Under the pieces are notes generated by a model. That model saw only the letters and a program-made list of their open reading frames with translations, was not told the origin of the DNA and ran no database searches. 23,535 bases of DNA from a virus (Duplodnaviria > Heunggongvirae > Uroviricota > Caudoviricetes), in IMG/VR virus record IMGVR_UViG_2859799533_000003, positions 1-23,535 of that record. One strand, 5' to 3'. Below are positions 10,216 to 16,757 of the stretch, piece after piece. Position 1 is the stretch's first letter, and each line of letters opens with the position of its first letter. Position numbers and translations under genes: made by a program.

Positions 10216-11149
10216 TGAGGTGTACTGGCAATAGCGGACACTACCATTTGTTCTTTTTTTAAGCAGCCATCTGATGATATTTTTCCCTGAAGGCTGCCGG
10301 GGAGATATTCCCCAGACGAGAGTGACGACGCTGACGATTGTAGAAAATCTCAATGTATTCCCGTATTACTGAGATGGCTTCATCCCGGTTATTAAAACGA
10401 TAGTGGCTCAGGCTCTCATTTTTCAGCGTTCCCCAGAAGCTTTCCATCGGAGCGTTGTCGTAACACTGACCTTTACGCGACATTGATGTTTTCAGACCAG
10501 ACTGCTCCTGTATGACCCGGTAATCGTATGCGCAGTACTGTGAACCTCGATCAGAGTGGTGGATTAGCCCGGCAGGTGGGCGCTGGCTCCTGAGCGCCAT
10601 AAACAGGGCTTTACCTGTCAGCTCTTTTGTCATGCGCTCTCCCATGGCGTAGCCGACAATTTCGCACGTATAAACATCTTTGATGCCAGCGAGGTACAAC
10701 CATCCCTCCTGTGTGGCAACATACGTCAGGTCCGCCACCCAGACCTGATTTGGTGCTGTAGGAGCGAACGTCTGGTTCAGCAGATTTGGCGCAACTGGCA
10801 GATTGTGGTTCGGGTTCGTAGTCGCTCTGAACTTGCGTTTCTGCTTACAGCGTAGCCTTAGCTCCTTACGAAGACGTGCCAGTCGGTCACGACCAACGAT
10901 GATGCCATTCTCTGCCAGCTCCGTCTGGAGCCGCCGGGTTCCATATGTTTCGCGAGTGCGGATATGTGCCACCTTAATCTCCAGTTTTAGCCGCTCATCA
11001 CTTTGTTTTCTGTCTGAGGGTTCATGCTGTACCCAGTTGTAATAACCGCTCCTGGATACACCAAATACCTGACACATCGCTTCAATGGGAAATTGTTGTC
11101 GCCATTGTTCGATTAACGCGTATTTTTCAGCGACTCCTGTGCAAAATAC
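10216..11149 (-). mobile_element. IS3-family element, 3' portion only (orfA and left end missing; truncated by IS66-family element)
   Basis: OrfB on minus strand; terminus TGAGGTGTACTGGCAATAGCGGACAC at 10216 resembles IS3-type IR; upstream OrfB frame stays open to about 11210 with no orfA and is interrupted at 11150. Confidence 0.6.
10259..11077 (-). CDS. IS3-family transposase OrfB (catalytic core)
   Basis: 272-aa ORF with HHSDRGSQY ... SMSRKGQCYDNAPMESFW signatures. Confidence 0.85.
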   Translation of the reverse strand: MCQVFGVSRSGYYNWVQHEPSDRKQSDERLKLEIKVAHIRTRETYGTRRLQTELAENGIIVGRDRLARLRKELRLRCKQKRKFRATTNPNHNLPVAPNLLNQTFAPTAPNQVWVADLTYVATQEGWLYLAGIKDVYTCEIVGYAMGERMTKELTGKALFMALRSQRPPAGLIHHSDRGSQYCAYDYRVIQEQSGLKTSMSRKGQCYDNAPMESFWGTLKNESLSHYRFNNRDEAISVIREYIEIFYNRQRRHSRLGNISPAAFREKYHQMAA

Positions 11150-11279
11150 GTAAGGCAGTATGACTTTCCGTGAGACAGATGCTGGCCAACGTGGGATATT
11201 TAACGCGGGTTAACATCGTTGTCAGAGCCGCATGGGTGAGCTGTTGCTACACCCCGGTATTTCCACCACGGAGGCCAGC

Positions 11280-12407
11280 ATGAACAACAATAACACATTG
11301 TACGTCGGGTTAGATGTTCACAAAGAATCGATTACTGTCGCTTATGCTATCAATTCAGAACCTGTTGAACTGATGGGTAAAATTGGCACATCACCTACTG
11401 ATATTCAGAATCTTTGTAAACGTCTCAGGTCAAAGTCATCGCAGGTCAGTATCGTTTATGAAGCGGGGCCCTGTGGTTATGGACTTTATCGTCGGCTGGT
11501 GAAATCCGGTTTTGACTGCATGGTCTGCGCCCCCTCACTTATCCCGAAAAAACCGGGGGAGCGGGTTAAAACCGATCGCCGTGATGCCATCAGACTTGTG
11601 CGTTCACTGCGTGCAGGAGATCTTTCTGCTGTCTACGTACCCGGCATTGAAGATGAGGCATTCCGGGATTTGGCCCGGGCATGGGCATCTGCCCGCGATG
11701 ATTTACGGCATGCAAGGCAACGTCTGAAATCGTTTCTTCTGGTTCATGGGGTCCATTATGTCGGGCGAGCAGATTGGGGCCCTGCACACCGACGCTGGCT
11801 CAGCAAATACTCATTCGAAAGTCCCTGGCGACAATTAGCTTTTGACGAACACCGTCGTACAATAGAAGACCGGCAGGCACAATGTGAACGGCTGGAATCC
11901 GCCCTGAAGGAGGCCGTTACCGAATGGAGGCTGTATCCGGTAGTAGAGGCGCTGCAAGCCATGCGAGGGATTCAGTTTATTACTGCGGTTGGATTAATTT
12001 CTGAACTGGGTGATCTGACCCGTTTTGAACATCCACGACAACTGATGTCATGGTTTGGTATCACGCCATCAGAATATTCATCGGGTGGAAGCAGACATCA
12101 GGGCAGCATTACCAAAGCCGGAAACAGCTATGCCAGAAAGCTATTGGTCGAGGCAGCGTGGAGTTACCGTCATCCGGCACGCATCAGTCCGGCAATACAA
12201 AAAAGGCAGGAAAATTTACCCCGCCCCGTCATTGACAGAGCATGGGATGCTCAACTCAGGCTTTGTAAGAGGTATCGAAAACTTCAGGCCAAAGGAAAGA
12301 ATGTCAATATTACAATTGTTGCTGTTGCACGTGAGCTGGCGGGTTTTATCTGGGATATGGGCCGAATAGCAATGTCTGTCGCACAACAACCACAATGTCA
12401 CAAATAA
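11280..12407 (+). CDS. IS110-family (DEDD/RuvC-like) transposase/recombinase
   Basis: ATG 11280 with GGAGG SD; N-terminal YVGLDVHK motif and C-terminal region typical of IS110/IS1111 family (recalled). Confidence 0.85.
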   Translation: MNNNNTLYVGLDVHKESITVAYAINSEPVELMGKIGTSPTDIQNLCKRLRSKSSQVSIVYEAGPCGYGLYRRLVKSGFDCMVCAPSLIPKKPGERVKTDRRDAIRLVRSLRAGDLSAVYVPGIEDEAFRDLARAWASARDDLRHARQRLKSFLLVHGVHYVGRADWGPAHRRWLSKYSFESPWRQLAFDEHRRTIEDRQAQCERLESALKEAVTEWRLYPVVEALQAMRGIQFITAVGLISELGDLTRFEHPRQLMSWFGITPSEYSSGGSRHQGSITKAGNSYARKLLVEAAWSYRHPARISPAIQKRQENLPRPVIDRAWDAQLRLCKRYRKLQAKGKNVNITIVAVARELAGFIWDMGRIAMSVAQQPQCHK

Positions 12408-12655
12408 AAATGAGAATAACCAGTTCCCTGAAGGCGACGTAGCCCGGTACAAGAGTAACCCACGTTAGCGCTTGGCGACGGCGGAACAAAGCTGATTCGC
12501 GACGTAAGAAAGTGGCAGGCTCATATGACGGACCTCTGTAATGCGGTATCCAACCCGCGAATATCAGCGTGATTCACCGTCGGATTTACTGCTACGTCGC
12601 CCTCAGGGAATTAAACCTAAAAAGAAAATCGTCAAAATTAGAGATTCCGGTTTGA
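12408..12655 (+). ncRNA. candidate structured non-coding RNA (possible IS110-family bridge/seek RNA)
   Basis: No ORF; 18-bp long-range inverted repeat 12426-12443 / 12591-12608 (17/18 complementary) enclosing about 150 nt. Strand and exact ends unknown. Confidence 0.3.
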
Positions 12656-12698
12656 CACGGAAAGTCATATCAGCGTCAACGGAGCACCGTATTGACGC

Positions 12699-15174: not shown

Positions 15175-15446
15175 CAGGAAACTGTCGTTGCATGGATAAA
15201 GGGATGGAATCAAGAGTACTGGATAACGCCATTGCCAGCTTGCTGAGGGCAAAAATACAGAACCCGGTGTCAATAAGTTTTCCTTTTGACACCTCATTTT
15301 TTAACTGCTGTGTAACAGCCTGTTCTGCTGTCAGTTCCCATCTGGCAATAAGCAATTTTTCCTCATAGTCGTCTTCGCTATCGCCATCAGGCACATCGTT
15401 TTTACTTCTTCTCAGATACGATATGTAAAAATCGCGCCAGGCATCC
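15175..15446 (-). pseudogene. nu1: fragment of terminase small subunit (lambda Nu1-like), internal about 90 codons, inverted relative to E-H
   Basis: Minus-strand frame open across the whole inter-IS gap; ...DTGFCIFALSKLAMALSSTLDSIPLSMQRQFP matches recalled lambda Nu1 ETAFCTFVLSRIAGEIASILDGLPLSVQRRFP; cut by IS66 at 15174 and IS629 at 15447. Confidence 0.55.
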
Positions 15447-15500
15447 TGAACCGCCCCGGGAATCCTGGAGACTAAACTTCCTGAGAAAGAGGTAAACAGG

Positions 15501-15826
15501 ATGACTAAAAATACTCGTTTTTCCCCCGAAGTCCGTCAACGGGCAGTCCGTATGGTTCTGGAAAGTCAGGGCGAATATGACTCACAATGGGCGACAATTT
15601 GTTCCATTGCTCCAAAGATTGGCTGTACGCCGGAGACTCTGCGTGTCTGGGTTCGCCAGCATGAGCGGGATACCGGGGCGGTGATGGAGGGCTCACCACC
15701 GCTGAACGTCAGCGTCTGAAAGAGCTGGAGCGTGAAAATCGTGAACTGCGCCGCAGTAACGATATCCTTCGCCAGGCTTCCGCTTATTTTGCGAAGGCGG
15801 AGTTCGACCGCCTCTGGAAAAAGTGA
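15501..15826 (+). pseudogene. IS629 orfA with 1-bp deletion in a G run (frameshift at 15675-15678)
   Basis: ORF 15501-15719 terminates early; the remaining OrfA sequence ([49 protein letters not shown]) continues in the +1 frame to the stop at 15824-15826; restoring one G joins them. Confidence 0.6.
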
Positions 15827-16713
15827 TGCCACTGCTGGATAAGCTGCGTAAGCTGTACGGGGTCGGACCGGTATGCAGTGAACTGCATATTGCCCCGTCA
15901 ACGTATTACCACTGTCAGCAACAGCGACATCATCCTGATAAACGCAGTGCCCGTGCGCAGCGCGATGACTGGCTGAAGAAAGAGATACTGCGCGTATACG
16001 ATGGGAATCATCAGGTATACGGTGTGCGTAAAGTCTGGCGTCAGTTGTTACGGGAAGGTATCAGAGTGGCCAGATGCACTGTGGCACGTCTCATGGCGGT
16101 TATGGGACTTGCCGGTGTTCTCCGGGGTAAAAAGGTCCGTACGACCATCAGCCGGAAAGCCGTTGCCGCAGGCGACCGCGTAAACCGTCAGTTCGTGGCA
16201 GAACGACCTGACCAGCTGTGGGTGGCTGATTTTACTTACGTCAGCACATGGCAGGGCTTCGTCTATGTGGCGTTCATCATTGATGTGTTTGCCGGATACA
16301 TCGTGGGGTGGCGGGTCTCATCGTCCATGGAAACGACATTCGTGCTGGATGCTCTGGAGCAGGCGTTATGGGCCCGTCGACCGTCCGGCACGGTCCATCA
16401 CAGTGATAAAGGTTCTCAGTATGTATCGCTGGCCTACACACAGCGGCTTAAGGAAGCCGGATTACTGGCATCAACAGGAAGTACAGGCGACTCGTATGAC
16501 AACGCGATGGCGGAGAGCATCAATGGTCTTTACAAAGCGGAGGTAATACACCGTAAGAGCTGGAAAAACCGTGCAGAAGTGGAACTGGCCACACTCACGT
16601 GGGTGGACTGGTATAACAATCGACGATTGCTGGAAAGGCTGGGCCATACTCCTCCGGCAGAAGCAGAAAAAGCTTATTATGCTTCCATCGGAAACGATGA
16701 TCTGGCAGCCTGA
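15823..16713 (+). CDS. IS629 transposase OrfB
   Basis: 296-aa ORF with IS3-family catalytic core (HHSDKGSQY ... [16 protein letters not shown]). Confidence 0.85.
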
Positions 16714-16757
16714 GTTCACAGATAAAACACTCTCCAGGAAACCCGGGGCGGTTCAGA

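Follow-up and report, generated by a model that had tools for sequence, protein, structure and literature searches.

How a lambdoid prophage came to carry a nest of insertion sequences (ISs) in the place of its lysis and head-morphogenesis genes is the question raised by a 23,535-bp stretch of viral DNA (IMG/VR record IMGVR_UViG_2859799533_000003, positions 1 to 23,535; this whole stretch is hereafter called the window). The window holds a lambdoid prophage remnant at 663-22873, with one IS911 copy at each end. An exact-protein match traced it to GenBank CP026866.1, a finished chromosome of 4,680,268 bp, at about 1.05 Mb, and the genome size together with the repertoire of IS911, IS600, IS629 and ISSso6 points to a chromosome of the Shigella or enteroinvasive Escherichia coli (EIEC) type. 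The nest (10216-16755) is very probably a genuine product of IS traffic in this heavily IS-laden, Shigella-type chromosome, acting upon a prophage that resembles Shiga toxin (Stx) phages without carrying stx, and involving inversion as well as deletion. Two intact relatives were used for comparison, namely the prophage at mlrA/yehV in E. coli SY033 (NZ_CM185152, locus L003; below, the SY033 prophage) and phage PhiR12_1 (PV340549, locus L002). The features of the nest and of the two phage blocks beside it are listed here.

663..10215, plus strand: early-to-late segment of the prophage (replication/NinR-like genes, Q, DNA methylase fragments, tRNAs, STnc100 small RNA, nanS-p and the start of a DUF1378 gene), collinear with 16001-25209 of the SY033 prophage at 95-97% identity
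10216..11149, minus strand: IS600 remnant, the 3' 934 bp, with orfB intact at 10259-11077 and the right-end tip at 10216
11150..11154, minus strand: GTAAG, the detached outer tip of the IS66 right repeat, split off by ISSso6
11155..12671, plus strand: ISSso6 (IS110 family, IS1111 type), with its transposase at 11280-12407
11160-11172 and 12655-12667: the 13-bp subterminal inverted repeats of ISSso6, ATGACTTTCCGTG and CACGGAAAGTCAT
12408-12671, plus strand: downstream non-coding region of ISSso6, 264 nt, structured
12672..15174, minus strand: body of the IS66-family element, with tnpC (12699-14291), tnpB (14322-14672) and tnpA (14669-15088) all intact and the left-end tip at 15174
15175..15446, minus strand: internal fragment of Nu1 (terminase small subunit), 272 bp, roughly codons 38-128 of 169
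15447..16755, plus strand: IS629, full length (1,309 bp) with both inverted repeats, orfB at 15823-16713 and an ALIL pseudoknot at 15781-15897
16756..22873, plus strand: head-tail segment of the prophage, with E (without its first 4 nt, ATGG), FI, FII, Z, U, V, G, T and a truncated tape-measure gene H

Both phage blocks retain the gene order and orientation of the intact phages: Q, the tRNAs and nanS-p on one side, and E through H on the other, are collinear with the two relatives at identities of 95-99.5%, window 16756-22792 corresponding to 35169-41209 of the SY033 prophage at 99.5%. Between the blocks the SY033 prophage has 9,959 bp (25210-35168), encoding DUF826, holin, endolysin, Rz, Nu1, A, W, B, C, D and the first 4 bases of E, where the window has 6,540 bp of nest. 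This agrees with the sequence-only reading, an earlier interpretation of the same DNA made without database searches, according to which about 10 kb of lysis and Nu1-to-D genes had been replaced. Intact lysis or terminase genes elsewhere in the same prophage had been named there as a sign of mis-assembly; in a tblastn search of the window holin, lysozyme, Rz, A, W, B, C and D were all without a match, a result that covers the contiguous remnant and not the whole genome. Unlike the window, the intact relatives also possess int, xis and a repressor as well as complete tail genes. These genes, and the tail genes past the truncated H, are missing from the window because the IS911 copies cut the prophage at 662/663 and 22873/22874.

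The outcome is a remnant without lysis genes, terminase, portal, protease/scaffold and decoration genes, in which the major capsid gene has no start codon. It is well supported that this is a cryptic (defective) lambdoid prophage, the lambdoid order being kept while the functions for excision, lysis and virion assembly are lost, and the earlier statement that it can neither lyse nor package is supported as far as the genes present here go.

The nest had been described as four IS families. Four elements were indeed recognised, but in three families, as IS600 and IS629 both belong to IS3. All are well-known ISs, and each matches a named copy at 98.8% identity or more, far above chance expectation. 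Members of the IS3 family encode an rve-type transposase, OrfB, which is joined to OrfA by a -1 frameshift, and have terminal repeats starting with TG and a 3-bp target duplication. The IS600 piece belongs to this family by sequence identity (99.0% over 934 bp, without gaps, to an annotated IS600 in locus L001), and its orfB product matches Pfam rve/HTH_21 and the NCBIfam IS3 family (332 bits). About 330 bp have gone from it, comprising the left inverted repeat and most of orfA, with which any target duplication would also have been lost, and judged from what is left it is not a functional element.

IS629 is 98.8% identical to an annotated IS629-like copy over all 1,309 bp. It shows the OrfA/OrfB organisation, a frameshift pseudoknot (ALIL, 120 bits) and terminal inverted repeats (characteristically 25 bp in this element) that are 92% complementary, and its OrfB scores 309 bits to the NCBIfam IS3 family. 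A 1-nt deletion in a G run at 15675 shortens the orfA product to 72 aa, compared with 108 aa, and leaves no OrfAB fusion frame. The 72-aa allele recurs in many independent assemblies, pINV-type plasmids and short-read data among them, which shows it to be genuine and widespread, although it is probably an inactive variant. IS629 has been associated with IS-mediated deletions and inversions in the prophages of enterohaemorrhagic E. coli O157, and here too it lies within a lambdoid morphogenesis region. An IS629 copy beside Nu1 in E. coli IAI39 was considered as a possible instance of the same event and was ruled out, the insertion there being upstream of an intact Nu1 and without rearrangement.

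The IS66 family has imperfect terminal repeats starting GTAAGCG and generates an 8-bp target duplication. The element in the window is a member of this family (tnpA-tnpB-tnpC; DDE_Tnp_IS66), with IS66-type TnpA, TnpB and TnpC domains in both Pfam and NCBIfam. Its inverted repeats are recognisable as GTAAG...CGTCAACGG and GTAAGCGTAAACTG, the right one being split by ISSso6. An uninterrupted IS66 copy in locus L004, to which the window body is 94.7% identical, reads GTAAGCGTCAACGG and carries the 8-bp duplication AGAAAAAC; the window reads at the right end GTAAG, then ISSso6 (1,517 bp), then AGCGTCAACGG. The composite of IS66 and ISSso6 spans 11150-15174 (4,025 bp). The IS66 body is 99.7% identical to the composite in locus L005, and over all 4,025 bp the identity is 99.7% to a copy in E. 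coli FDAARGOS_943, where an 8-bp duplication in a tail gene flanks it. An IS110-family insert in the IS66 element, as claimed earlier, is thus present, and it sits in the extreme tip of the terminal repeat rather than in the body.

Every junction of the nest falls at an exact IS terminus, and the five that had been named beforehand (10216, 11150, 15174, 15447 and 16755) all proved exact. At 10215/10216 the DUF1378 gene stands against the IS600 right-end tip TGAGGTG, and at 11149/11150 the IS600 interior (about position 331 of IS600) against the IS66 tip GTAAG. The IS66 left-end tip (...CGCTTAC) abuts Nu1 at 15174/15175, Nu1 abuts the IS629 tip TGAACCGCC at 15446/15447, and the right tip of IS629 meets nucleotide 5 of E at 16755/16756. 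Because all junctions lie at such termini, all of them stem from IS activity or from recombination between IS copies. No junction showed a target duplication, in accordance with the sequence-only reading: the 8-bp flanks of the IS66 composite differ, CAAAATAC (11142-11149) against CAGGAAAC (15175-15182), and IS629 lies between TCC and GAT without a 3-bp duplication. Related IS66 copies in L004 and L005 do carry 8-bp duplications, and the missing one in the window records a later rearrangement.

The two flanks of the composite are alike at five of eight positions, both end in AC, and both are similar to the AGAAAAAC duplication of the related copy. This hints that the IS66 element prefers A-rich ...AAAC targets, and it suggests, too, that each flank is a true insertion target of IS66.

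The shard of Nu1 noted previously is also present, and its orientation can now be added. It lies on the minus strand, opposite to E and the rest of the E-H block and to Q/nanS-p, and is 98.9% identical to the SY033 prophage from 29424 down to 29153; Pfam Phage_Nu1 matches the minus-strand translation of 15175-15446. Since the shard is inverted between two phage blocks in native orientation, deletions alone are insufficient; the arrangement calls for one or more IS-mediated inversions, or for an exchange between inverted IS copies. The successive IS-mediated deletions proposed before, in which every IS would have removed neighbouring DNA after its insertion and nothing would have been inverted, would explain why all junctions lie at IS tips and why about 10 kb is missing, but deletions cannot invert DNA, and with a Nu1 fragment reversed relative to both flanking segments such a course is scarcely conceivable. 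What survives of that proposal is the IS-mediated loss, seen in the precise termini; what does not is the restriction to deletions. In this respect a small inverted gene shard reveals inversion steps that a deletion-only reading misses. A foreign origin of the shard was tested by its divergence, and 3 mismatches in 272 bp compared with 0.5% in the E-H block were not significant.

The following history could account for the arrangement. The first steps would have been insertions of IS600 downstream of nanS-p and of IS629 at the start of E, after which the IS66 element would have inserted into IS600. An IS-mediated inversion may then have flipped part of the lysis-head block, either through homologous recombination between inverted copies of IS629 (or IS66) or through duplicative intramolecular transposition ending inside Nu1. 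A second event, either a deletion running from the other IS into adjacent DNA or an exchange between IS copies in direct orientation, would have removed the remainder while sparing the shard. ISSso6 may have entered the IS66 tip at any time once an IS66 copy existed, by its own sequence-specific and probably RNA-guided recombination.

Two mirror-image versions of the middle steps can be envisaged. In one, the IS629 at the start of E would be accompanied by an inverted IS629 copy inside Nu1, arising from a separate insertion or from duplicative intramolecular transposition; recombination between the two would invert the Nu1-to-D block and set Nu1 (29153) against the IS629 beside E, and a later deletion from the IS66 left end up to Nu1 29424 would follow, by recombination with a direct IS66 copy or by adjacent deletion. 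In the other, an IS66-mediated inversion would set 29424 against IS66, and a deletion on the IS629 side would then reach the start of E. The two are equally economical, each with four insertions, one inversion and one deletion, and under both a target duplication at IS66 or IS629 would not be expected, as is the case after recombination between copies. Substrates for such recombination exist, because the same IS66 element is multi-copy in related chromosomes of 4.7-4.8 Mb (the exact-protein matches of TnpC shown being to other genomes) and IS629 has other copies in CP026866.1.

Several points weigh against this interpretation. The order of events and the inverting element (IS629 or IS66) are not fixed by the window, the two histories being equally parsimonious; a second lambdoid prophage in the genome could have supplied the Nu1 shard; a reciprocal junction elsewhere in CP026866.1 could hold the missing genes; and the assembly is known here from the consensus sequence. 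The nest might instead be a junction of recombination between loci, that is, a hybrid of two lambdoid prophages, or of a prophage and distant IS copies, joined via IS66 and/or IS629 during large inversions. In that case the lysis and head genes would not have been deleted but would persist elsewhere in the chromosome, at the reciprocal junctions, and the flanks predicted are CAAAATAC by the 5' part of IS600, GTTTCCTG by the 3' part of Nu1, GGA by the 5' part of Nu1 and ATGGGAT by the D-E intergenic region. The chromosomal position lends this some support. Past the left IS911 lie yecN, cmoA, cmoB, torZ, torY, cutC, yecM and argS in inverted K-12 order, and past the right IS911 lies potB-potA-pepT in K-12 order. 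In K-12 these regions map at ~1.95 Mb (yecN) and ~1.18 Mb (potB-potA-pepT), separated by about 0.77 Mb with the terminus between them. As only the yecN flank is inverted across this distance, the locus is the junction of a large terminus-spanning inversion with endpoints next to yecE and potC, the pattern that an inversion between the yecE and potC regions would leave. Insertion of Stx-type lambdoid phages is documented at both yecE and potC (PMC8065619). Also in line with it, IS66, IS629 and both IS911 copies all lack target duplications, and the early half of the remnant is 95-97% identical to the SY033 prophage compared with 99.5% for the late half. However, lambdoid mosaicism by itself accounts for the difference in identity, and the crossover of the large inversion may equally have been at a flanking IS911 copy, in which case the nest would be local. 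A 272-bp shard between two different ISs would, moreover, need two long-range exchanges ending 272 bp apart, and the second IS629 copy with the 72-aa allele in CP026866.1 is a simple insertion in an autotransporter gene, not a reciprocal junction. On these grounds recombination between loci appears unlikely as the origin of the nest. At the scale of the whole remnant, it may represent one prophage with parts carried away or a hybrid of two, with the crossover at IS911 or at an IS copy of the nest.

Mis-joining of contigs through the repeated IS629 or IS66 copies could also leave ISs without duplications, and compared with close relatives, in which FII, U and V are intact, the window lacks single bases in several G/C homopolymers, which suggests an imperfectly polished long-read consensus. 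Errors of that kind nevertheless point to long reads, which normally span repeats of 1.3-4 kb, and CP026866.1 is a finished 4.68-Mb chromosome. The IS600-interior/IS66-tip junction and both junctions of the shard join unique sequence to exact IS tips, which is a signature of transposition or recombination and not of collapse, while the IS629 orfA frameshift is a real and widespread allele. An assembly artefact is thus very improbable.

The distribution of the nest was also surveyed. Neither the IS66/Nu1 nor the IS629/E junction was found by exact-match scans of GTDB representative genomes and JGI metagenomes, and when four queries, each spanning a junction, were run by megablast on 5,426 complete E. 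coli genomes, no record covered any phage/IS junction. The nest was not found in other assemblies through a gene-position index, and a look-up of the truncated E protein yielded no intermediates, the matches being short contigs starting GGATTG (the intact E start) and an intact prophage. The nest is a strain- or lineage-specific case of a known process, namely ordinary IS-driven prophage decay. Truncation, inversion and deletion of prophages by ISs are the norm in Shigella and EIEC, accompanying the expansion of IS1, IS2, IS4, IS600 and IS911 (Hawkey et al. 2020, PMC7373316). The window resembles such genomes in its repertoire of IS911, IS600, IS629 and ISSso6, its duplication-less IS copies and its genes cut at IS tips, as well as in the large rearrangements relative to K-12 and the chromosome size of ~4.7 Mb; no essential difference was noted. 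The locus matters mainly for annotation, as a base-by-base record of how one Shigella-type lambdoid prophage was disabled, and its duplication-less IS copies mark likely breakpoints for reconstructing the chromosomal rearrangements of the strain.

The position of ISSso6 within the IS66 tip raises a further question of target choice. The element is annotated as ISSso6 in matching records, and its transposase carries Pfam DEDD_Tnp_IS110 (PF01548) and Transposase_20 (PF02371) and matches the NCBIfam entry 'IS110 family RNA-guided transposase' (transpos_IS110, 274 bits). A DEDD transposase, subterminal repeats, a non-coding region, a fixed target and the absence of a target duplication together place it in the IS110 family as an IS1111-type element. 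Its insertion point is the motif GTA(AG)CGT, 3-5 bp from the IS66 end, and the dinucleotide AG is present at both junctions. Among the loci fetched, 12 ISSso6 copies in distinct flanking contexts all read GTAAG-ISSso6-AGCGT; besides the window, ISSso6 at an IS66 tip was seen in L001, L005, L008-L011, L025, L029, L031, L033 and L034. The occupied repeat may be the right or the left one, in three or four IS66-family variants at the least, and in L031 both tips of one copy are occupied. Since the surroundings of GTAAGCGT vary, it is apparently this 8-bp tip that is targeted, the core dinucleotide AG being shared.

The non-coding region downstream of the transposase (12408-12671) has a predicted fold in which a long, stable stem is interrupted by internal loops (-88 kcal/mol, z = -4.0). 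Within this region lie the 10-mer ATATCAGCGT, which corresponds to the right end plus AG plus target and whose length was reached by 15 of 5000 shuffles, and also GACGTAAG, which equals the left half of the target. These features make it a candidate seekRNA/bridge RNA; no Rfam family matched it, even at E<=5. Elements of the IS1111/IS110 group are known to be guided by seekRNA or bridge RNA and to be site-specific, and some of them target other mobile elements (Siddiquee et al. 2024, PMC11187229). ISEc11 is another such element, ISEc21 inserts at a conserved site inside IS3-family transposase genes, and IS4321/IS5075 enter the terminal repeats of the Tn21 family (PMC11187229). ISSso6 resembles these elements in its DEDD transposase, its subterminal repeats and the long structured non-coding region downstream, and it too uses one invariant site inside another mobile element with only a shared dinucleotide duplicated. 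Unlike the named examples, its target is GTAAGCGT of IS66-family inverted repeats, at either end. A search of the literature found no description of GTAAGCGT, or of the IS66 tip, as a target for ISSso6.

Taken jointly, these sequence features give about an even chance that ISSso6 is an RNA-guided IS1111-type element that naturally targets GTAAGCGT, capping the ends of IS66 and parasitising it. If so, ISSso6 would detach the outermost 3-5 bp of IS66 and probably cripple its transposition, while itself spreading with IS66. This would be a specific case of IS-on-IS parasitism not found described in the literature searched, and it could illustrate, in a natural setting, how IS1111-type RNA-guided recombinases choose their targets. 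ISSso6 copies with partial tandem duplications of the 3' end were also observed in L008 (5290/5495) and L011 (4030/4136), and in both the right end runs into an AGCG(T/C) site within the non-coding region of the element; it looks as though ISSso6 had recombined with a target-like sequence of its own.

The remaining features of the window are the following.

1..662, plus strand: 3' part of IS911 (IS3 family), cut by the window edge, with the right-end tip TGAAGTGGTCAAC at 662; truncates a Rha-family gene
5193-5570: Q gene, within the early-to-late segment
7235-7484: tRNA-Met/Arg/Arg cluster, downstream of Q
7560-7764: STnc100 small RNA, an Rfam match
7987-9948: nanS-p, with a TAA nonsense codon at codon 78
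ending at 10215: DUF1378 gene, first 44 codons only, cut by the IS600 remnant
22874..23535, minus strand: second IS911 copy, cut by the window edge, in inverted repeat with 1-662; truncates H

The two IS911 pieces are identical and inverted relative to each other; the piece at 1-662 is 99.6-99.7% identical to annotated IS911 copies and matches the NCBIfam IS3 family. Neither copy has a 3-bp duplication, AGC lying outside and GTT inside at 662. A simple inversion between the two copies was considered and rejected, as their flanks are not swapped complements.

Damage to the phage genes extends beyond the nest. In nanS-p, TAC has become TAA at codon 78 (8218-8220) when compared with an intact homologue of 98.8% identity, leaving a 564-aa open reading frame that starts at 8254. 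E begins at its nucleotide 5, the SY033 prophage reading ATGG/GATTG and the window ...GGTTCA/GATTG, with no ATG. Six 1-nt deletions relative to the SY033 prophage were found, at 5657, 9957, 17790, 18299, 19162 and 19522; the four in the head-tail block lie within G or C runs, and at 5657 and 9957 one G each is missing. Those at 18299, 19162 and 19522 produce frameshifts in FII, U and V, and they may be either real slippage mutations or long-read consensus errors. The locus is best annotated as a defective prophage remnant, with E, nanS-p, DUF1378, H and Nu1 as pseudogenes.

No stx gene is present between the tRNA/STnc100 stretch and nanS-p; like its SY033 relative, the prophage belongs to the Stx-phage type but carries no toxin genes. 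The position of the tRNA-Met/Arg/Arg cluster and STnc100 downstream of Q matches that in Stx phages. The sole phage stretch without a match in the SY033 prophage, 5674-6899, holds two fragments (6136-6450 and 6607-7185) of a DNA adenine methyltransferase gene, which would seem to be a broken form of the methylase that sits at the same position in Stx phages.

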